From the NCBI GenBank assembly GCA_026770705.1, contig JANJGN010000150.1, positions 1 to 64,000 of the forward strand: a stretch of 64,000 nucleotides of DNA. Reading direction: 5' to 3'. The translations under genes were made by a program, and so were the position numbers. This stretch comes from Isurus oxyrinchus (taxonomy: Eukaryota). Below are positions 3,255-45,267 of this stretch, in pieces; within the stretch, counting starts at the first letter, position 1; each line of letters opens with the position of its first letter. The notes under the pieces were generated by a model that searched no databases, had not been told where the DNA came from, and worked only from the letters and a program-made list of their open reading frames with translations.

Positions 3255-4095
3255 AATAGACTTAAAATTTACAGATGAGGCTGAATTGGGGGGATGGTCA
3301 ATACTGAGGAGAATGGCAACAAATTATTTTGGCAAGATGAATAGAAAAACAGGATATTATTTAAATGGAGACAGGCTGCAGAATGCAGTACAGAGGGATC
3401 TGGGTGTCCTGGTACATGAATCACAGAAAGTCAGCATTCAGGAACACCACGGAATGAGGAAGGCACGTGGAATGTTGGCCTTTATTGCAAAGGGATGGAG
3501 TATAAAAGGAGGGAAGTCTTGCAACAGCTGCACAGGGTGAGATTGTATCAGGAGCAGTGTGTACAGTTCTGGTCTCCTTACTTAGGGAGGGATAGACTTG
3601 CATTGAAGGCAGTTCAGAGGAGGTTCACTGGGCTGATTCCCGGGATTAAAGGGTTTGTCCTGTGAGGAAATGTTGAGCAGGTTGGGCCTGTATCCATTGG
3701 AGTTTAGAAGAATGAGGGGTGACCTTATTGAAACATATCCGATTCCGAGGGGGCTTGACAGGGTGAATGCTGGGAGGATGTTTCCCCCTCGTGGGGGAAT
3801 CTAGAACCAGGGAGCACAGTTTCGGAATGAGTGCTCTCCCATTTAAGACTGAGATGAGGAGGAATTTCCTCTCTCAGAGTGGCGCTAGCCTGTGGAATTC
3901 TCTTCCCCAGAGAGCAGTGGAGGCTGGGCCATTGAATAGACTCAAGGCTGAGTGAGGCAGGTTTTTGATCGACAAGGGAGTCAAGGATTTGGGGGACAGG
4001 CAGGAAAATGGAGTTAAGGCCACAACCAGATCAGTGAGAGCAGGCTCGAGGGGCCGAATGGCCTGATCCTGTTCCTATTTCTTATGTTCCTACAT
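3255..4095 (+). mobile_element. 5'-truncated CR1 LINE
   Basis: QRDLGVLVHESQK motif and CR1 3' tail; inverted copy at ~53800-54600. Confidence 0.85.
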
Positions 4096-12057: not shown

Positions 12058-12097
12058 CTTGGAGAAGTGACAGGAGGAAGTAGGATTTCCCGATCAT
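12058..12097 (-). CDS. Gene A leader (signal peptide) exon, coding part MIGKSYFLLSLLQ
   Basis: Exon 12058-12137 with tttcacag acceptor and G|gtaat phase-1 donor; joins the V exon to give MIGKSYFLLSLLQVGLS-QEW. Confidence 0.85.
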
Positions 12098-12547
12098 TGT
12101 CCACTCCCAGGTACTTCATAAGCTTCTGACTCTCAAACTGTGAAAGAGAAAGGAGTTAATGAGACCTCACCTCTTGTCCGACAGCTCTTAAGAGATCAGA
12201 ACTGTTTTTGGACAATGTCTTGACAGACTAATTTGATTCTCTGTGGGATGATAGGTGCTCTGCAGAGAGTTACAAGGCTTTAAGAAAGAAAAACATTAAA
12301 GGATTTGCATTTCTATAGCACCTTTCACCACCTCAAGACGTCCCAAAGCTCATGTCTCTGCAATTCCCTCATCCCTTGAGCTAGAAAGATGTTCTGTACA
12401 ACAGACTTGAGTCTCACACCCAGATCTCAATAATCAGTAGAAATCTTTCAAAGGCATCAATCATTGGAATCTGTCTTTATAAAGTCACAACATCAACAAA
12501 GGACGGTGTTGGTGGTGGAAGTGAATTCCAATCGTTCCGTTACTTAC

Positions 12548-12632
12548 CCAGGACCTGTCCGACTGCTCGCCTGGGGAGGAACTGCCCACACGCTCTGCTT
12601 GGGCTGAATGACCTCTTCCTGTGCTGCTCCCT
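12548..12632 (-). other. Gene A putative non-coding first exon (85-nt module)
   Basis: Strong TGG|gtaagt donor ~410 nt upstream of the leader-exon acceptor; same arrangement in all four genes. Confidence 0.65.
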
Positions 12633-12674: not shown

Positions 12675-12688
12675 AAAATGAGGAAGTG
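12675..12688. promoter_or_regulatory. PU.1/ETS-type site aaaatgaggaagtg upstream of gene A first exon
   Basis: Matches the PU.1/Spi consensus (purine-rich GAGGAAGT) about 45 bp from the exon; equivalents upstream of genes B, C and D. Confidence 0.5.
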
Positions 12689-15365: not shown

Positions 15366-15505
15366 TCAAACAGTCTGTCGACTTCCTTTCACTGTTTGTC
15401 TCTCCCAGACACAGACTCCAGTGATAGTGATAACCACAGCCACAAGGAATATCACAGCTCGTATTCCCAGGATCAGGATCACATGCAGAATCTCTCCTCC
15501 ACTGT
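15366..15505 (-). CDS. Gene B terminal exon: transmembrane segment with intramembrane Arg and short tail (activating type)
   Basis: ttctctag acceptor, phase 1: SGGEILHVILILGIRAVIFLVAVVITITGVCVWERQTVKGSRQTV*; Arg codon at 15459-15461; no Tyr in the tail. Confidence 0.85.
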
Positions 15506-17174
15506 CTAGAGAACACACAGAAAGAAATCATCACTGACTCTCCGCTTTCAATCTCTCACTCTGGCTGAACAATCAAGCTTCATATCACTGCAACATTTGC
15601 TGTAATATTGACCCATCCACTGGGATTCAATGTGGAATGAATGTTTTCATTGTAAACACTCTAAGAGTGGACAATCGGAACTTTCCCCTCAGCGTGGAAC
15701 ATTGGTGAGAATGGATCATTGTGCTGTTGGACTCCCTGTCCAATGTTACTCTCCATCGCTGTGTACAGGATTGTGCTGTAGAAAATTCTGGAAACGTTTA
15801 GTGCAGGGTGGAAATCCATCTCGGACGCGTGTGCGAATCGAGCAGAATCGAGATGGACTCCCCCACGGACTTACACCCCCCGCTTAATAAACAGTTCCAA
15901 TCTTTACCCAGAGAGAGGGGAGAATGTGGAACTCACTCCCACAGGGATTGGTTGAGGTGAACAGTATCGATGTATTTAAGGGGCAGGAGGGTCGGTAACC
16001 AGAGGGACACAGATTGACCAACTGGAGGGGGAGATGAGGAGAATTTGTTTTGACAGAGCGAGTTGTTGTGATCTGGAAGGTGCTGCCTGAAAGGGCGGTG
16101 GAAGCAGATTCAATAGGAACTTTCAAAAGGGAAATTGGATAAACACTTGAAGGAGGAAGATGGGGTAAAGTGGAGTGGTGGTTAGTGGATCTGATTGGAT
16201 AGAACATTGAAAGACCTGGCACAGGCACAGTGGGCTGAATGGCCTCCTCCTGTGCTGTATCATTCTCCACTTCCATGATCTCTCCCCCAGTCAGTAACCA
16301 CTCCAGATCCCTCTTGAAGGCGACAGAGAAACAGGAACTACCACACCCACTGACAGCACATTCTCAAGGATCCCTACTTTCTGGGAAAAGATGAACTCCC
16401 CAACATCCAGCCTATTCCTGCTTCCCAGAGAGTGTAAACCCTTCAGGGAGGCACTGAGGAAGTTTTCAATAAAATGAATTATCAAATCTATCATTTGAGA
16501 AATAATTTAATTCTGATGAACTCACAGCTTGTGTAGCAAACTGGGAAGTGGAGTTGCTTGAAAAGCTGGGAAACACAAGGATTAAGTGCTACAATGCCAC
16601 CACTGGTGGGAGACTGTAACTACAGCGTGACGTTTACATAGGCAGTCATCATTATAAACAGGGGCATTGGACATACTGGGAAATATGTGCACTGGAAAGG
16701 TGAGTAAATGATGTAAGATTTTCACCAGCAGGAATTCTCTAACTAAACCTCTCCACTTCTCTCTTACTCTCAGATACACAAACAAAATCACACAGAATCA
16801 GATAAGGAGGAGTTGGGGCCGGTGATTGTTCGAAGGGTTAGCTTTCAGGAAGCTTCTTAAAGGGAGAGAGAGAGTTGGAGAGGCAGAGAGTATCTGTGAG
16901 TGTCTCTATGCATCTGAGTGTCTGTAATAGACTTTGTAATTTCCATTTCTTCCATAAACATGATTGGGAACACAAATCCCAGAATCCAGGCCAACTCTCC
17001 AGTGCAGTACTCAGGTAAGCCACAGGGCAGTGTGTGCTAGTGTGTTTGTTCGTGAGTGTGTCTTTGTAATTGCTCATACATGTGTGTCTGCACGTGTCTA
17101 TTTAGTTCTGTATATTTGTGTGTGTTTGTGCAATGTTTGAATCTGCGAGAGATGTTGAAGTCTGTGTAACTCAC

Positions 17175-19884: not shown

Positions 19885-19924
19885 CTTGGAGAAGTGACAG
19901 GTGGAAGTAAGATTTCCCGACCAT
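19885..19924 (-). CDS. Gene B leader exon coding part MVGKSYFHLSLLQ
   Basis: Exon 19885-19964, paralogous to 12058-12137. Confidence 0.8.
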
Positions 19925-20374
19925 CGTCCACTCCCAGATATTCCATCCACTTCTCACTCTCAAACTGTGAAAGAGAAAGGAGTTAATGAGACCTCACCTC
20001 TTGTCCGACAGCTCTCGAGAGATCAGAACTGCTTTTAGACAATGTCTTCATAGACTAATTTGATTCTCTGTGGGATGATAGGTGCTCTGCAGAGAGTTAC
20101 AAGTCTTTAAGTAAGACAAACAATGATTGATTTGCATTTCTATAGCACCTTTCACTATCTCAGGGCATCCCAAAGCTCATGTCTCTGCAGTTCCCTCATC
20201 CCTTGAGCTAGAAAGATGTTCTGTACAACAGACTTGAGTCTCACACCCAGAATTCAATAATCAGTAAAAATCTTTCAAAGGCATCAATCATTGGAATCTG
20301 TCTTTATAAAGTCACAACATCAACAAAGGACAGTGTTGGTGGTGGAAGTGAATTCCAATCATTCCGTTACTTAC

Positions 20375-20515
20375 CCAGGACCTGTCCGACTGCTCGCCTG
20401 GGGAGGAACTGCCCACACGCTCTGCTTGGGCTGAATGACCTCTTCCTGTGCTGCTCCCTATTTGTGTTTAATTAAAAAGGGTGCCTGTGTCACTGTGAGT
20501 CAAAATGAGGAAGTG
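20375..20515 (-). promoter_or_regulatory. Gene B 85-nt first-exon module with AP-1 (tgagtca) and PU.1/ETS site
   Basis: Exon ends at 20375 followed by a gtaagt donor; tgagtca at 20496-20502 abuts aaaatgaggaagtg at 20502-20515. Confidence 0.55.
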
Positions 20516-20629
20516 CTTGGTACCAAGTGAGAAAGCAACTCTTTGCCTCGCACTGTTAGAAAACTGTTAACCCTTTGCATGCCAATAATGTGGTTGAAGG
20601 GCCATCGACTGTTCATATGCAACAAGCTC

Positions 20630-21845
20630 GAGGGTTTGAATGGGCCTCCTCCTGTTCCTGTGTAACAGGCTCGAGGGGTCTAAATGGGCCTCCTCCTGTT
20701 CCAGTGTGACATGATTGTGTGGCTGATTAAGCCTCCCCCTGTTCCTGTGTAACAGTCTTTGGCAGGGCTGAATGTGCCTCCTCCTGTTCCTGTGTAACAG
20801 GCTCCAGGTGCTGAATGCCCTCCCCCTGTCCTTGTGTAACAGGCTCGAGTGTCCGAATAGGCCTCCTCCTGTTCCTGTGTAACAGGCTCAAGAGGCTGAA
20901 TGGATCTCCTTGTTTTCCTGTGTTACAGGTTAGATGGTCTGAATGGGCCACCTCCTGTTCCTGTGTAACAGGTTCAAGGGGACAGAATGGGCCTCCTCCT
21001 GTTCCTGTGTAACAGCATCATGGGGCTGAATGGGCCTCCACCTGTTCCTATCTAACAGGCTTGAGTGGCTGAATGGGCCTCCTCCTGTTCCTGTGTAACA
21101 GGCTTGATGGGGCTAAATGGAGCCCCTAATGTTCCTGTGTAACAAGCTTGTGGAGGCTGAATGGGTCTCCTGTACCTGTGTAACAGGCTCAAGGGGACAG
21201 AATGGGCCTCCTCCTGTTCCTGTGTAACAGGCTCGAGGGAACAGAATGGGCCTCCTCCTTTTCCTGTGTAACAGGCACGAGGGACTGAATGGGTTTCCTA
21301 TTCCTGTGTAAGTGGGTTGAGAGACTGAATGTCCTCTTCCTGTTCCTGGGTAACAGGCTCGAGGAGCTGAGACTCTCTCCTGTTCCTGTGGAAGGGTGTT
21401 GAGGGACTGAATGTCCTTTTCCTGTTCCTGTATAATAGGCTCAAGAGGCTGATGGGCTTTCTCCTGTCCTCATGTAACAGGCTTGAGTGGCTGAATGGTC
21501 CTCCTCCTGTTCCTGTGTAACAGGCTTGAGGGAATGAATGGGCCTCCTCCTGTTCCTGTGTAACAAGCTCGAGGGGGCTGAATGGGCCTCCTCCTGTTCC
21601 TGTGTAACAGGCTTGAGGGAATGAATGGGCCTCCTCCTGTTCCTGTGTAACAGGTTCGAGGGGGCTGAATGGCCTCCTGCTGTTCCTGTGTAACAGGATC
21701 AAGAGGCTGAATGGGCCTCCTCCTGTTCCTGTGTAACAGGCTCGAGGGGGCTGAATGGGCCTCCTCCTGTTCCTGTGTAACAGGCTCGAGGGGCTGAATG
21801 GCCTCCTGCTGTTCCTGTGTAACAGGATCAAGAGGCTGAATGTCC
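20630..21845. repeat. ~40-bp minisatellite (gggctgaatgggcctcctcctgttcctgtgtaacaggctcga)
   Basis: Tandem copies; unit resembles the CR1 3'-tail motif; paralogous array at 38278-39405. Confidence 0.92.
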
Positions 21846-21854
21846 TCCTGTCAT

Positions 21855-23183: not shown

Positions 23184-23300
23184 TTATAAATTCCCATAAA
23201 CAGAATCCTTGGCAAATTCACAGTTTGCGTAAAGATCATCATCTGTATCAGGATTGACTCCGCGGTTAGATTTCATTTCCAGATCCTTCTCATCTTTCTT
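23184..23300 (-). CDS. Gene C terminal cytoplasmic exon with ITIM
   Basis: ttacag acceptor, phase 0: KKDEKDLEMKSNRGVNPDTDDDLYANCEFAKDSVYGNL*; SVYGNL fits (S/I/V/L)xYxx(L/V). Confidence 0.88.
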   Translation of the reverse strand, partial: KKDEKDLEMKSNRGVNPDTDDDLYANCEFAKDSVYGNL

Positions 23301-23837: not shown

Positions 23838-23942
23838 CTGATTCCTCAAAGCCCAACCACGCTCACAGTTTTCATAAACAGGACCTCGATATTCATCAAC
23901 ACGGTGGTTCGATTTGATTCCTGCTTTCCCCTCGCCTCTCTT
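23838..23942 (-). CDS. Gene C cytoplasmic exon with Tyr motif VYENC
   Basis: ttacag acceptor and CAG|gtgagt donor, 105 nt, phase 0-0: KRGEGKAGIKSNHRVDEYRGPVYENCERGWALRNQ. Confidence 0.82.
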
Positions 23943-24453
23943 CTGTAATAGAGATGGAAATGGACAGAGTGACAATCAACATGATGTGTATTCGGTGTTG
24001 GGTTTGATTACTGGGGAGAGAGTTCCAGATTTCCACTCCCCTTTGTGTGAAGAAGTGCTTCCTGACATCACCCCTGAATGGCCTGGCTCCAATCTGAAGT
24101 TCCAGCCCCCTTGTTCTGGACTCCACCCGACCCCCACCACCCACCCCCACCCGAGGGAATAGCTTCTCTCTATCGACCCTATCGAGTGTTTAATCAGTTT
24201 GAACCCCTCAATTAGATCCCTCCTTAATCTTCTAGACCCGAGGGAATATAATCATAGACTGTGTGTAACCTGTCTGCATAATTTAACCAGAAAGATGTTC
24301 TGTACAACAGACTTGAGTCTCACACCCAGATCTCAATAATCAGTAGAAATCTTTCAAAGGCATCAATCATTGGAATCTGTCTTTATAAAGTCACAACATC
24401 AACAAAGGACGGTGTTGGTGGTGGAAATGAATTCCAATCGTTCCATTACTTAC

Positions 24454-24538
24454 CCAGGACCTGTCCGACTGCTTGCCTGGGGAGGAACTGCCCATACGCT
24501 CTGCTTGGGCTGAATGACCTCTTCCTGTGCTGCTCCCT
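24454..24538 (-). CDS. Gene C juxtamembrane cytoplasmic exon (85-nt module)
   Basis: acag acceptor and gtaagt donor; phase 2 to 0 bridges the TM exon to the phase-0 tail exons: (K)GSSTGRGHSAQAERMGSSSPGKQSDRSW. Confidence 0.72.
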
Positions 24539-24829
24539 CTGTGTATTTAATGAGAAAGGGTTGATGTGTCTCTGTGAGTCAAATCAGAAATTGGGGAACA
24601 ATTCTGAAAACCCCTTCATTGAAACGTAGGGCCTTAGTGTTGTGTTGTAAACAAACTGTTAACCCTTTGTGTCCTGACTCTGTGACGTGATTCCTGTGTA
24701 AAGTTGAGCATTTGGTGAGCGACTTTCAATTCACTGCTCACTCCAGGTGTTGAGGTGGATCTTCTGAAGGAGCAGATGTTGCTCAGCGCTCCTTAAAAAT
24801 GTCAGATACTGAACATTGTGTCAGAGGAC

Positions 24830-25040
24830 GAGAGAGAGAATAAGAAGGAGAGCATTAGTGGAGATAGGAGAGAGAGTGAATGAGAGAAAGAATGAGAAGG
24901 AGAGCATTAGTGGAGATAAGAGAGAGAGTGAATGAGAGAGAGAGAATGAGAAGGAGAGCATTAGTGGAGATAAGAGAGAGAGTGAATGAGAGAGAGAGAA
25001 TGAGAAGGCGAGCATTAGTGGAGATAAGAGAGAGTGAATG
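24830..25040. repeat. AG-rich ~52-bp tandem repeat, about four copies
   Basis: gagaaggagagcattagtggagataagagagagagtgaat repeated. Confidence 0.85.
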
Positions 25041-25350
25041 AAACATGGAAAAAGGAAAGAGATTGCATTCACTAACAAAAGAAAGGTTTTCATTTATATA
25101 GCACCTTTCACATCCTCATTAGGTCACAAGGTATCTTATGGTCCAGGTCAACACTGCCAGTTACAGGACTGAGTTGTGAAACATTGAGTGTTGAATGAGA
25201 TGTTAAACAGTAGGTGAACATCAAAACTCTTCAGGGGCTGTGAAGGGTTTTGGATTGTAAAAGGTGCTATAGAAATGAAAGTTCTTTCTATAAGGAGAGA
25301 AGGTTGAAGAAAACATGTTCAAAAACAACCAATTAAAGCTTCACACTTAC

Positions 25351-25447
25351 TTTCTCACACACTTGAAGATGAAGAATCCACTCAGTCCAACACTCAAACA
25401 GATTCCAGCTCCAAGCAATCCTGCTTTCCATTCATTGGAATCTCGCC
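25351..25447 (-). CDS. Gene C transmembrane exon (no mid-membrane charged residue)
   Basis: ttttacag acceptor and gtaagt donor, 97 nt, phase 1 to 2: RDSNEWKAGLLGAGICLSVGLSGFFIFKCVRK. Confidence 0.87.
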
Positions 25448-26713: not shown

Positions 26714-26994
26714 GTTCCACAGTGATGTTATAAATCCCTCCACTGCTCCATGTTCATTCTCTGCCACACACTGATAGTCTCCAGTGTCCCTGGATGTAAC
26801 GTGAGGAATCACCAACCACAGCTCATTGTTGGAACTTGTTCTGTTCATTGGGACATTAAGATGTCGCCACGTCAGGTTAGAAGCTGGGAAGCTCTCGACA
26901 GAGCAGATTATCACTGCAGAATTCCCCTCAATTATATTGATCGATGAAGCGTTAATCATACCAAGAGAAGTAATTGAGAGATTCTGTGGTTTGT
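26714..26994 (-). CDS. Gene C third Ig exon (C2/I-set) with a 1-bp deletion near its 3' end
   Basis: 281 nt (not a multiple of 3); DKPQNLSI..IICSVESFPASNLTW..DTGDYQCVAENEHG; ATAACATCACT versus ATAACCATCACT in the paralogue at ~56637. Confidence 0.85.
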
Positions 26995-31746: not shown

Positions 31747-32043
31747 CTTGCACAGTGAGTACGAGGGTCCGCTCCGATGAAACAGATGGATATCTCACTC
31801 TGCAGCTGAGAGTGTGTCCGTGGTGTTTGAGTGATGGGATCAGGGTCAGAACAGAAGTATAGGTCAGAGTGACACCATGCTGAGTTACAGTGTTTGAGAC
31901 TGATCCAGGTACGTCAGTGGGAGTGTCCCAGGTTAAGACAGGTGCTGCTGTTCCATTACACGTTGTGTTGAAGGTGCAGCTTACATCCACACGCTTTCCT
32001 GCAATAATTTCAGCAGGGAATATCGTGGGTTTATCTGTGAAAT
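31747..32043 (-). CDS. Gene C exon: C2-set Ig domain
   Basis: 297 nt, phase 1-1, canonical splice sites. Confidence 0.9.
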
Positions 32044-32902: not shown

Positions 32903-33271
32903 CAGAAATGTGAAGCTGGGTTACAGGGTAATAGTTATGGCTCGGACCATTGTCAAATTCTATCCTGAAAAAATAAGGTCCTGCATCTTCCCGTCTGATG
33001 CTGTTTATAATCAGGGAACAGTCGCCATCTTTCAGGTCTCCAGACAGCCGGGTCCGATGGTGGAACCGTGGTAACTCGTGACTGTGATCCTTGGAGTGAA
33101 AGGCAATGGGAGCCCAGGGAATCTGTTTCTCATTATTAAACCAGACTCCACCTCGCGGTTTGCTTTCCAAATGTGATGGATAACTGTAATGACATGGAAT
33201 CTGTACACACGAACCTTCCTGCGCTGTCACCTCTCGGGGACTGTCACCTTTCCACTCTTGTGACAGTCCAA
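32903..33271 (-). CDS. Gene C exon: V-set Siglec-like domain
   Basis: 369 nt, phase 1-1; CVQIPC, GVWF, DCSL and YFFRIE intact. Confidence 0.92.
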
Positions 33272-33902
33272 CTGGGGAGAGAAATATCAATATTTAACTC
33301 TGGAAGGTTTGTAGATCCACTAGACTCGATATCCACCCCCTCCATCACTGGGGCACAGTGGCTGCAGTTTGGAACATCTACAGGACACACAAGGAACTCC
33401 CCAAGGTTTCACAATGGATGGAAGAGAATCCTGGACACAGGAGTGGACAAGTTCATTCTACTTTGGCTCATGGTCCTCAGGACCCTGTTTAGTGAAGCCA
33501 GTGAGACAGTGTCACTGTGCCTTGTATTATAATGCTCCTGTGTAGCCCCTTGGATTGTTTTTTTTTACAGTTAAGGCGCTATGTAAATATAATCTATTGC
33601 TCTCTGCTCATCTGGACCATTTGGATTGTTAATTTCAAGCGGCCTGGTGACTGCTTCATGTTCAGTCCAAATGCAGCCTCTAATTATCACTTTAATGTCA
33701 ATGATTAAATGTGACCCAACACACTGTCTACAAGACACACCAACTGAGATCCATTCAGTGCTGATTTACAAGACAGGACAATGGATTAGGAGCCGTCAGA
33801 ACTCCCCCCATTATCACCGTCATGAATCACTAATTAGCCTAACATTCCTGTCTGCTCTTCAACACAGCTGATTGGCTAATCTGATTCAATCTGATTGGTG
33901 CA

Positions 33903-34006
33903 CTTTGGACCTTCATTGTCTGAGGAATCTCTTTGGATCCTCATTGTTTTAGGAATATCTTTGGATCCTCATTGTTTAAGGAATCTCTTTGGATCCTCAT
34001 TGTCTA
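33903..34006. repeat. ~28-bp tandem repeat, about four copies (ctttggatcctcattgtttaaggaatct)
   Basis: Directly visible. Confidence 0.8.
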
Positions 34007-34806
34007 AGGGATTATTTCTGATCCAAACCCCATATTGTTGTATTGTTGATTCCGATGCAGCATTGTAGACTGACTTGTCCCCAAGCTCAGCACTGACCCT
34101 ACTCCAGCAGACACTGTGAAACACACTAACAAAGTGCCTCTAGCCTGAGCTCTGCATGTGTCGAGAGAAAGACAAATATACAAACTGAATATTGACACCT
34201 TTACACACAGACAGCTTTACCTTCCTTCTCTCTTTCAGTTATCTTGCTCCCTTATTGAAGTATCTAGCAAGGTGAGAATGGACAGGAAGTGTGACACTGA
34301 ACAGCCTGTCTATTCTAGGAGCTGCTGTGTTGTCTTCATGGGAAATTCTGAATAAAATCAGCAAAAGACACATTTCAGGATATTGCTATCAGACACCTAA
34401 CATAGGGAGAGACTTCATCCTCCAGTTTTTATCCCTGATTTTCTACTCAACCTTTTACCACCCTTCCCCCCATCCACACTGACTTACATAGGCTCCCAGT
34501 CAAGCAGATCCTCCATTTTAAGATTCTCATGCTCAATTCCCAATCCCGCCAACCCCCTCTCCACTCGCTGGCTCTGTAACCTCAACCAGCCCCTTCAACC
34601 CTCAGAGATCTCTGCTCTCCTCCAATTCTGCTGTCAGACAGGGAGTCAGTGTATATCAGTGAGCACAGTGGTGATGGGTCAATGGGACTTGGTGTGTGTT
34701 TGTACACTGGCTCACTGCTGAATCTGTTCTCAATCACAGCTCAATAAGAATGATCTTTTACAAAGACTATTAGCCATAAATCTGTTTGAGCTGATGATGA
34801 TATTAC

Positions 34807-34846
34807 CTTGGAGAAGTGACAGGAGGAAGTAAGATTTCCCGATCAT
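34807..34846 (-). CDS. Gene C leader exon coding part MIGKSYFLLSLLQ
   Basis: ATG at 34846, phase-1 gtaat donor, acceptor near 34889. Confidence 0.85.
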
Positions 34847-35297
34847 TGTCCACTCCCAGATAATTCCTCAGCTTCTAACTCTGAAGTTCTGAAAGAGAAA
34901 GGAGTTAATGAGACCTCACCTCTTGTCCGACAGCTCTCGAGAGATCAGAACTGCTTTTAGACAATGTCTTCACGGATCTAATTTGATTCTCTGTGGGATG
35001 ATAGGTGCTCTGCAGAGAGTTACAAGGCTTTAAGAAAGAAAAACATTGAAGGACTTGCATTTCTATAGCACCTTTCAACACCTCAGGATATCCCAAAGCT
35101 CATGTCCCTGCACTTCCCTCATCCCTTGAGCTAGAAAGATGTTCTGTACAACAGACTTGAGTCTCACACCCAGATCTCAATAATTAGTAGAAATCTTTCA
35201 AAGGCATCAATCATTGGAATCTGTCTTTATAAAGTCACAACATCAACAAAGGACGGTGTTGGTCGTGGAAGTGAATTCCAATCGTTCCGTTACTTAC

Positions 35298-35438
35298 CCA
35301 GGACCTGTCCGACTTCTCGCCTGGGGAGGTACTGCCCACACGCTCTGCTTGGGCTGAATGACCTCTTCCTGTGCTGCTCCCTCTGTGTATTTAATTAGAA
35401 AGGGTTGATGTGTCACTGTGAGTCAAAATGTGGAAGTG
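35298..35438 (-). promoter_or_regulatory. Gene C 85-nt first-exon module (35298-35382) with AP-1 and ETS-core site
   Basis: tgagtca at 35419-35425 followed by aaaatgtggaagtg. Confidence 0.55.
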
Positions 35439-38055: not shown

Positions 38056-38140
38056 CCAGGACCTGTCCGACTGCTCGCCTGGGGAGGAACTGCCCACACG
38101 CTCTGCTTGGGCTGAATGACCTCTTCCTGTGCTGCTCCCT
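38056..38140 (-). other. Extra copy of the 85-nt exon module (no adjacent leader exon)
   Basis: Intact AG and gtaagt; upstream ETS core absent; downstream intron truncated by the satellite at ~37965. Confidence 0.7.
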
Positions 38141-38277
38141 CTGTGTATTTAATGAGAAAGGGTGGATGTGTCACTGTGAGACAAAGTGGGAGGTGGTTGC
38201 TGTCAAAGTATGAAAGCAAACTGTTAACCCTTGGAGTGCCAAGGCTGTGTCCGAATGTGACTAACCCTTTTCCCATG

Positions 38278-39405
38278 TAACAGGCTCGAGGGGCTGAATG
38301 GCCTCCTCCTGTTCCTGTGTAATGGGATTGAGGGGGCTGAATGGGCCCCTCATGTTTATGTGTAACAGGCTCAAGGGGTTGAACGGCCTCCTCCTTTTCT
38401 TTTCTTACAAGCTCGAGAGGCTGAATTGGCCTCCTCCTGTTCCTGTGTCATAGGCTCGATGGGCTGAATGGGCCTCCTCCTGTTCCTGTGTCACAGGCTC
38501 GATGGGCTGAATGGGCCTCCTCCTGTTCCTGTGTCACAGGCTCGATGGGCTGAATGGGCCTCCTCCTGTTCCTGTGTCACAGGCTTGAGGGGGCTGAATG
38601 GGCCTCTTCCTGTTCCTGTGTTACAGGCTCACGGGGGCTGAATGGGCCTCCTCCTGTTACTGTGTAACAGGCTCAAGGGGCTGAATGGGCCTCCTCCTGT
38701 TCCTGTGTAACAGGCTCGAAGGGGCTGAGTGGGCCTCCTCCTGTTCCTGTGTAACAGGCTCGAGGGGGCTGAGTGGGCCTCCTCCTGTTGCTGTGTAACA
38801 GGCTCAAGGGGCTGAATGGGCCTCCTCCTGTTCCTGTGTAACAGGCTCAAAGGGCTGAATGGCCTCCTCCTTTCTTCTGTGTAACAGACTCGAGGCGGCT
38901 GAATGGGCCTCCTCCTGTTCCTGTGTAACAGGCTCAAGGGGCTGAATGGGCCTCCTCCTTTCTTCTGTGTAACAGACTCGATCGGCTGAATGGGCCTCCT
39001 CCTGTTCCTGTGTAACAGGCTCCAGGGGGCTGAATGGCCCTCCTCCTGTTACTGTGTAACAGGCTCAAGGGGCTGAATGGGCCTCCTCCTGTTCCTGTGT
39101 AACAGGCTCGAGGGGCTGAATGGGCCTCCTCCTTTCTTCTGTGTAACAGACTCGAGGCGGCTGAATGGGCCTCCTCCTGTTCCTGTGTAACAGGCTCAAG
39201 GGGCTGAATGGGCCTCCTCCTGTTGCTGTGTAACAGGCTCCAGGGGCTGAATGGGCCTCCTCCTGTTCCTGTGTAACAGGCTTGAGGGGCTGAATGGGCC
39301 TCCTCCTGTTCCTGTGTAACAGGCTCGAGGAGCTGAATGGGCCTCCTCCTGTTCCTGTGTAACAGGTTCAAGGGGCTGAATGGGCCTCCTCCTTTCTTCT
39401 GTGTA
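38278..39405. repeat. ~40-bp minisatellite
   Basis: Paralogue of 20630-21845. Confidence 0.92.
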
Positions 39406-40484
39406 AATGGCCAGTCCAAAGGATGTGTTTGATGCTGGGGTTAATGGCCTCCAACACAATCCTGTCCTCACATGATTAACTTAGTTAGTGACTGGTTACT
39501 GGTTAATGCAGGAGGATTATTTATTTTCCCAATCTTTTATCCATGTGTCTGGTTAGGATCTTTTCATCAAACACAGAGCAGAACCAGGATCGAGGATGTT
39601 GGTGTCTGAAATCTGTAACACATCGCACCGTCCACCCATTCACTCAGCCTTCAGGATGGAGGCTAATTGTTCTTTCAAAAACTGAAAGACTGAAATGGTT
39701 GTAAGTTGTAGCTTTAGCTCATTCTGTTGTCAAAGCTGTTTCAGCCATCCAGGATACAGTGAAAAACGTACATTTGCAAGCAACTTTTCACATCATAGCT
39801 CCCTCTGTTCACAATGACATTGGCAACATCAATGTAAACATGTCACGCTGTAATGACATCCTCCCACCAGTGCTGGCACCGTAGCACACCTGTTTTCCTC
39901 TGTGTTGTCGGAAGTCTACCAATTCCCCAATCAAATTGTTTCCCTTTCCCAGGCTGCGATTAGTCTAATATTAAACAATAACTCATAAAATACACATGTT
40001 CTCTGAACATATGTTTGACTGCAAAATGGTGAATAAATTATAGGGATTTGCTCTGGTCCAATTATCCACCGATCCTGCATTTCCTGAAGTCTACACTGGC
40101 TGATGAATATTCTGTAAACACTGGCAGACAGGAAGGTGAATAACAGAATGAAAATTAACTCTTAATCACGGACACGGGATTGAATTTGTCCGTTCTGTCC
40201 TGGTACATCATCGAACGATATCAAAAGACATTTACAATCAGATTGGAGAGAAGGATGTTTCCAACAGGGAGGGACAATTCTGAAGGAGGATGTTCAAATT
40301 GAAACCCACAGACAATCATCCTGGATAGATCATTCCAAAGAAATTCCATCAGATTGTAACAAGAGGTTTAAATCTATTTCCTGGGAGTGAGTTCCTGTGG
40401 ATATTAGGAAGGTAAATTGGAGTTTTGAATGATTCTCCCGTTCTGTATTCTCCCCACACTGTGTGTGTCTCATTCTTGCTCAGT

Positions 40485-44637: not shown

Positions 44638-44777
44638 ACTTCCTCATTTTGTCTCACAGTGACACATCAACCCTTTCTCATTAAATACACAGAGGGAGCA
44701 GCACAGGAAGAGGTCATTCAGCCCAAGCAGAGCGTGTGGGCAGTTCCTCCCCAGGCGAGCAGTCGGACAGGTCCTGG
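44638..44777 (+). promoter_or_regulatory. Gene D PU.1/ETS site and 85-nt first exon (44693-44777)
   Basis: acttcctcatttt at 44638-44650; TGG|gtaagt donor at 44778. Confidence 0.55.
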
Positions 44778-45227
44778 GTAAGTAACGGAACGATTGGAAT
44801 TCACTTCCACAACCAACACCGTCCTTTGTTGATGTTGTGACTTTATAAAGACAGATTCCAATGATCGATGCCTTTGAAAGATTTCCACTGATTATTGAGA
44901 TCTGGGTGTGAGGCTCAAGTCTGTTGTACAGAACATCTTTCTAGCTCAAGGGATGAGGGAAGTGCAGGGACATGAGCTTTGGGTCATCCTGAGAAGGTGA
45001 AAGGCGATATAGAAATGCAAGTCCTTCATTGATTTATTTTTTTAAAGCTTTTTAACTCTCTGCAGAGCACCTATCGTCCCACAGAGAACCAAATTAGTCT
45101 GTGTAGACATTGTGTAAAAGCAGTTCTGATCTCTCGAGAGCTGTCGGACAAGAGGTGAGGTCTCATTAACTCCTTTCTCTTTCACAGTTTGAGAGTGAGA
45201 AGCTAAAGGAATATCTGGGAGTGGACA

Positions 45228-45267
45228 ATGATCGGGAAATCTTACTTCCTCCTGTCACTTCTCCAAG
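45228..45267 (+). CDS. Gene D leader exon coding part MIGKSYFLLSLLQ
   Basis: Exon 45188-45267 with ttcacag acceptor and G|gtaat donor. Confidence 0.85.

Follow-up and report, generated by a model that had tools for sequence, protein, structure and literature searches.

A single 85-nt exon, hereafter called exon X, occupies two positions in the genes of a Siglec-like receptor cluster of the shark Isurus oxyrinchus. In tail-type copies, which lie between the transmembrane (TM) exon and the tyrosine exons, it encodes the first cytoplasmic peptide of the receptor; in leader-type copies, which lie upstream of the leader exon, it is likely a first exon under an ETS/PU.1-type site. The two classes are probably old duplicates whose likeness has been maintained by gene conversion and unequal exchange. 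It is this age and homogenisation that was overlooked by the preliminary description of the locus, which had proposed that one exon serves both as a cytoplasmic coding exon and as a 5' first exon.

The Siglec-like cluster and its exon X copies

The window, that is, the whole stretch of DNA analysed here, covers the opening 64 kb of contig C150, part of a genome of 4.98 Gb. It contains Siglec-like gene fragments, including gene C, which runs on the minus strand. The V exon of gene C (32903–33271, minus strand) matches the Pfam families V-set and Ig_CD22, and its best matches among solved structures are Siglec-5, -7, -8 and MAG, with alignment of a YFFR motif whose arginine I take to be the sialic-acid-binding one. 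Its homologues comprise 110 shark and ray proteins, the closest of which (up to 94%) come from Carcharodon and Cetorhinus. The N-terminal V-set domain carrying this type of arginine is accompanied by C2-set domains, a TM segment and a tail with tyrosine motifs, in gene C only if a frameshifted Ig exon is skipped (see below). Judged from sequence, the family is one of Siglec-like (CD33-related/MAG-type) receptors, putatively binding sialylated glycans.

Counts of exact patterns over the whole genome give at least 568 V exons and at least 336 leaders; exact junction patterns give at least 456 leader-type and at least 71 tail-type module ends, and exact 29-mers of exon X number at least 577. The cluster is spread over contigs C52, C71, C121, C150, C189, C323 and others of this assembly (G000), and many of its units look fragmentary. 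Three Carcharodon proteins (P0111, P0112 and P0124) have the same last Ig exon and, after it, the same TM, X, Y1 and Y2 exons (Y1 being the first tyrosine exon and Y2 the terminal coding exon) behind a different, MAG-like ectodomain, which suggests that tails may have been exchanged between Siglec types.

Six copies of exon X had been reported, at 12548, 20375, 24454, 35298, 38056 and 44693; all are present, and they are 95–98% identical to the copy at 24454. The latter (24454–24538, minus strand) is the tail-type copy of gene C. Four leader-type copies belong to gene A (12548–12632, minus strand; leader 12058–12137), gene B (20375–20459, minus strand; leader 19885–19964), gene C (35298–35382, minus strand) and a plus-strand gene (44693–44777; leader 45188–45267). 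Each lies 409–410 nt upstream of a leader exon that has its own acceptor, in agreement with the earlier estimate of about 410 nt. The ETS core ascribed to these four copies is found as ACTTCC (GGAAGT on the other strand) at −55 to −50, that is, at 12682–12687, 20509–20514, 35432–35437 (GGAAGT on the plus strand) and 44638–44643, respectively, and the copies at 24454 and 38056 do not have it. The gene B copy has indeed lost its original acceptor: CAG reads AAT there, and a TAG is left two bases on. The copy at 38056 (38056–38140, minus strand) is a truncated leader-type one, the intron of which is cut by a 33-bp minisatellite after about 80 nt. It lies 2.3 kb behind another Y2 exon, and the copy at 20375 lies 2.7 kb behind the Y2 exon of gene C.

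Splicing of exon X in the tail and in front of the leader

In gene C, exon X follows the TM exon (25351–25447, minus strand, phase 1 to 2, identified from RNA joints and homologues) and precedes Y1 (23838–23942, minus strand; motif PVYENC) and Y2 (23184–23300, minus strand; DLYANC, then SVYGNL and the stop codon), both identified from RNA joints. I take the Y2 motifs to follow the ITIM-like consensus. Since the TM exon ends in phase 2 and Y1 starts in phase 0, the 85 nt of 24454–24538 supply the phase 2-to-0 bridge that had been claimed for them. A scan of the TM-Y1 intron of gene C found the donor of exon X to be the sole one able to bridge the phases; of the three acceptor options, that of exon X has the best pyrimidine tract. 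In RNA, TM is joined to X (24538–25351) in two of the four runs (X5 and X6), X is joined to Y1 (23942–24454) in run X5, with a 72-nt side, and through a loose end in run X1, and Y1 is joined to Y2 in two of the four runs as well as by loose ends. These joints come from assembled contigs at 85–88% likeness and are therefore family-level: gene C's own allele at 24474 was absent from all four RNA runs checked, and run X12 gave no joint in the stretch examined.

The exon X peptide stands right after the TM segment in 20 of the 110 homologues. These 20 proteins represent 12 shark species of six orders, among them Heptranchias, Pristiophorus, Heterodontus, Scyliorhinus, Mustelus and four orectolobiform genera. 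None of the 24 named ray or skate proteins has the peptide, though their terminal tyrosine exon is alike. Weak matches of P0082, P0083, P0084 and P0102 were discarded as noise, as were the four hits of an exon-frame search of 50% representatives, in which several short stretches matched at 34–47% identity. Replacement changes among the array copies show no deficit in either class (2 synonymous to 5 replacement, and 6 to 17), variants being too few for these ratios to be informative.

A different exon between TM and tail, the outcome against which the preliminary description had set its coding exon, was not seen; what was seen is the direct joining of TM to Y1 (23942–25351) in runs X1, X2 and X3, all from one sample. 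The form without exon X is predicted to reach a stop codon near the last junction, some 30 residues on, and would have no tyrosine motifs. Skipping of exon X could switch the inhibitory tail on or off; alternatively, the joint may stem from a paralogue without exon X. In P0019 of Mustelus, the part of the tail that precedes Y1 is limited to the first half of the X peptide, which suggests an internal donor in exon X. A second type of TM exon, located behind gene B (15369–15503, minus strand), is of the kind found in P0030, with a short tail and an arginine in the membrane span.

Gene C, the showcase of the preliminary description, is itself a damaged member of the family, a feature missed there. 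Its leader exon (34807–34888, minus strand; ATG at 34846; RNA joints 33271–34807 and 34888–35298), V exon and C2-set exon (31747–32043, minus strand, identified by Pfam) are followed by a last Ig exon (26714–26994, minus strand) of 281 nt that is one base short near its 3' end. Because of the missing base, the mRNA containing all exons is out of frame before the TM exon and ends at 346 aa, within that exon in the wrong frame. Skipping of the last Ig exon is predicted to give an intact 369-aa receptor; by this reading of the frames, gene C reaches its exon X tail only when the frameshifted exon is skipped. A sequencing error was rejected as the cause, since the 1-nt deletion is common to three other loci (L061, L062 and L063, among 20), one of them 97.5% identical over the last Ig exon. 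There is thus a subfamily of at least four genes with this deletion, the outcome of which could be a secreted three-domain product, a decayed mRNA or in-frame skipping. The RNA contigs carry the last Ig exon in its in-frame form; a C2-set-to-TM joint is not among the joints listed, which is not counted as evidence. The dual use of exon X stands at the level of the family.

At the other end of the gene, exon X is joined to the leader in RNA (34888–35298) in one of the four runs (X1), with a 21-nt side, and six Carcharodon isoform models, probably of one locus, begin inside exon X and run into the leader. A leader exon lies 475–508 nt after the start of exon X in all 30 leader-type loci. The ETS core is present in 26 of these 30, compared with none of the 30 best tail-type matches and none of 22 independently picked tail-type loci (26 further rows minus three duplicates and one hybrid that has the core). 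Apart from this hybrid, the motif is therefore found, among these loci, at a fixed place in promoter-type copies only. Most tail-type copies read GGAAT at this position, two substitutions separating its context from GAGGAAGT; a passage of PMC11077085 states that GGAAT is not an ETS motif. Farther upstream, the leader-type copies are heterogeneous (35% within the class). From these data I infer that leader-type exon X is likely a non-coding first exon and that the ETS/PU.1-type site is its putative promoter. Contigs cannot show transcription starts; a start estimated from contig depth beside exon X was discarded for this reason and because LINE-tail contigs inflate the bin. The dual use proposed earlier is thus borne out for the family by both splices and by the tail peptide, while its second part, a first exon with an ETS promoter, keeps the rank of a likely reading. 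Firm evidence for the leader role comes only from this genome, Carcharodon and Cetorhinus.

When 33 leaders were compared with the frame of exon X, 22 had a stop codon, 8 were out of frame and 3 were open, so the copy at the 5' end does not code for protein in this genome. The leader of gene C, too, has an upstream stop codon in the frame of exon X. This frame is in register with the 82-nt leaders, yet 18 of 19 such leaders carry a stop codon. An RNA joint from the leader to X, found in runs X1 and X2, shows the use of an X acceptor downstream of a leader. Units of the form X-leader-X-leader (L039 and L040), in tandem at a distance of 2.1 kb and with no V exon between, may explain this joint in a linear way, back-splicing being the alternative. 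In the Cetorhinus models P0001, P0038 and P0039, too, exons farther upstream are spliced to X, in two of the three out of frame. Read-through splicing between neighbouring genes, as suggested previously, thus probably occurs, but a fused protein is mostly impossible, and a polyprotein made by TM-X-leader-V read-through was rejected for this genome, given that only 3 of the 33 leaders are open. The dual use of exon X accounts for the false read-through and the N-terminal extensions that automatic annotation gives to shark gene models.

Likeness of the two copy classes

The two classes share a near-identical block that in the tail of gene C covers 24289–24583 (minus strand) and consists of 45 nt upstream of the exon, the exon and 165 nt of intron. 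Between 22 tail-type and 30 leader-type loci, compared over 252 columns that span the exon and 165 nt of intron, dxy is 3.5%, against 2.8 and 3.5% within the classes; net divergence is 0.36%, with no fixed differences, 12 shared polymorphic columns and two identical cross-class pairs. Slight structure remains, Fst between the classes being about 0.10, a value reached by none of 1000 permutations. Inside the block the class distance is 2.4–2.9%. Upstream it rises stepwise to 9.5%, 28% and 40%, although older homology can still be traced as far as about −135, and after +250 it is 63%. A bounded tract of near identity is therefore set between diverged flanks, which is the pattern expected of gene conversion. 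At +250, where the shared block ends in tail-type copies, a degenerate 3' LINE fragment starts (24013–24288, minus strand, approximate limits from blastn and tblastx against the LINE copies of the window).

Searches of the assembly with gapped patterns recovered four hybrid loci: two of the order TM-X-leader, one of the order promoter-X-Y1 and one tail-type copy that carries the ETS patch. In the two TM-X-leader hybrids (L101 at C52:1048200 and L102 at C71:835475 of G000), the back of one gene is joined in DNA to the front of another. The hybrids are known from the assembly alone and could be mis-assemblies. Together, the shared polymorphisms, the lack of fixed differences and these recombinant loci point to gene conversion, likely between coding and non-coding copies. 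A Heptranchias gene model reads an upstream X copy in another frame. One base change fits this copy to the species' own tail copy, whereas at least five are needed for the copies of other species (15 peptides in all); since its position is known from the gene model only, it may be a neighbour's tail exon. A search for further models that read X in another frame returned the query alone.

A small, outlying Siglec cluster on contig C34 (15.13–15.19 Mb of G000; L081, L082 and L105–L107) holds unhomogenised copies of both classes. Compared with the copies in the window, its two tail-type ones differ at 10–11 of 85 nt and its two leader-type ones at 5 and 8 of 85. Among themselves the C34 copies differ at 9–14 of 85, and the distance between the two classes within this cluster amounts to 9–16%. 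Because the C34 classes stand about 10% apart from the arrays, compared with 2.4% between the classes of the arrays, the classes appear to predate the C34 split and the arrays to have been levelled later; the array copies are thus younger than the duplication that made the classes. Far-upstream flanks align too poorly with the C34 copies for use. A tree of the copies requires nine label changes, although a single tail-type clade is not rejected (p-AU 0.076). Finally, the 28 residues encoded by the C34 tail copy L107 are identical to those of Cetorhinus P0010 and Carcharodon P0076. Since exon X changes so slowly, low divergence alone is weak evidence.

Origin of exon X and relation to known systems

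Nucleotides 7–33 of exon X (24506–24532, plus strand, antisense to the gene) resemble the 3' tail motif of the window's LINEs, 25 of the 27 nt being identical to LINE tail copies at 16231 and 57572. The match scores 41 bits and exceeds all of 500 dinucleotide shuffles of exon X, the best of which reached 35.6; the likeness to an antisense CR1 3' tail that had been pointed out is therefore real. LINE copies near 4051, 15218 and 27830 terminate in this motif, and self-BLAST relates them to a copy with Pfam RVT_1 matches (in two of four frames); CR1 is the name by which I take this family to be known. Transposon descent is supported for the 27-nt piece and not for the rest of the 85 nt: an nhmmer search with the block gave no extension of the LINE match (best E 0.016), and an element body or ends around the exon were not found. 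The idea of exon X as an active mobile element was rejected, all examined copies being in Siglec contexts. Two minisatellites (20609–21849 and 38276–39406), built from a 43-bp unit of the LINE tail motif, adjoin two leader-type copies upstream, behind a Y2 exon.

Could the likeness of the classes be explained without exchange? A single recent duplication near the base of this shark order, by which a tail exon gave rise once to the leader-type class, would suffice if shark DNA changes slowly, and the identity of the L107 peptide in three species, the narrow range of species with a firm leader role and the unrejected one-clade test are all in line with it. This account is nevertheless distinctly improbable, as C34 holds both classes at about 10% divergence while the array classes differ by only 2.4%, and as it does not accommodate the shared polymorphisms, the identical cross-class pairs, the stepwise divergence of the flanks and the hybrid loci. 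A different objection concerns the leader role alone. Leader-type X might be an internal 5' UTR or read-through exon with a used acceptor, the true promoter being farther upstream or in the neighbouring gene. The acceptor AG is kept in 27 of 30 leader-type copies, the leader-to-X joint (runs X1 and X2) and the three Cetorhinus models enter X from upstream, and tandem X copies precede some leaders. That reading is unlikely, however, in view of the class-specific ETS core, kept at a fixed −55 in 26 of 30 copies despite heterogeneous sequence farther upstream, and of the loss of the acceptor in copies of the gene B type; moreover, retention of the acceptor is expected from conversion.

A third possibility differs from the preferred explanation in direction only. 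An antisense LINE tail would have landed in a 5' region, and later, in the stem lineage of sharks, a copy of the resulting first exon would have become an exon of the tail. The 27-nt LINE-tail match agrees with this order of events, as do the leader-type copies that head genes with other tails (P0047), and the reverse order must be given some weight because rays lack the peptide (none of 24 ray and skate proteins, though the terminal tyrosine exon is alike). It is rather doubtful all the same, since a full acceptor with pyrimidine tract is found in both classes and since the coding role, not the 5' role, is documented across six orders. I lean towards an internal coding exon that was later copied before the leader. 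In this sequence of events, an old internal tail exon would have been copied with its flanking introns to the front of a leader, and two base changes in the old acceptor region would have created the ETS site. Conversion would then keep the core alike, seldom crossing the ETS site or the LINE edge, and the retained acceptor would allow read-through, most of it left unproductive by stop codons. The LINE-tail fragment may have supplied the first third of the exon before the shark radiation.

A wider reading is offered tentatively, as an unlikely but consequential one. Over the some 250 million years of shark evolution, a partly retroposon-derived exon would have served as both promoter exon and coding-tail exon, homogenised separately in each lineage, and the 300-bp block would be a hinge at which the back of one gene recombines with another gene's front. 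If so, variants from hundreds of non-coding copies would feed the coding tails, and the shared block would drive expansion of the cluster and swapping of tails. Whatever the merit of the hinge, homology at both ends of tandem genes favours unequal exchange. The cluster itself, with several hundred Siglec-like units in one shark genome, is unstudied, and short reads are unassignable between the two uses of exon X.

A literature search returned no report on exon X, nor one on a coding exon and a 5' exon converting each other; Siglecs are mentioned once, without detail, in the available text of the whale shark genome paper. Parallels exist nevertheless for parts of the system. The primate paired Siglecs SIGLEC11 and SIGLEC16 are also paralogues subject to repeated gene conversion over a bounded region, but in the account given in excerpts of PMC5701461 a coding ectodomain converts a coding ectodomain in two genes, whereas in the shark the homogenised pair is a coding exon of the tail and a non-coding one at the 5' end, which occupy different positions in hundreds of gene units. 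The BGW element of the mammalian BEX/WEX/GASP genes is a first 5' UTR exon shared by a cluster, with gene conversion and chimaeric genes; as described in parts of PMC1274310 it is non-coding throughout, and the shark exon is also translated. LRRC37 genes gained a 5' exon and promoter by duplication from another gene position, the donors being the promoters of the unrelated genes BPTF and DND1 (from a section of PMC3371713), while in the shark the corresponding sequence is a coding exon from the interior of genes of the same family. Inclusion or exclusion of the short post-TM exon 7 of CEACAM1 decides between a long tail with tyrosine motifs (CEACAM1-L) and a short one (CEACAM1-S), much as the skipping of exon X seen in one sample might; no second, promoter-proximal use is described in the passages concerned (PMC2490704, PMC4113144). 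The HE1 V-SINE and HER1 LINE, retroposons found in sharks and rays, have a LINE-derived 3' tail in common (extract of PMC3747384) and are likened to the present case by description alone. The 27-nt piece of exon X matches the tail motif of LINEs in this window, and no element body follows it. The ingredients are thus singly known, to go by these partial sources: conversion among Siglecs (PMC5701461), conversion of a 5' UTR exon (PMC1274310) and gain of a promoter by duplication (PMC3371713). Coding paralogues are known to convert one another, and so are UTRs; what is unusual is a translated exon tied to a promoter exon of its own family, a tie that would couple the evolution of promoters with that of signalling tails.
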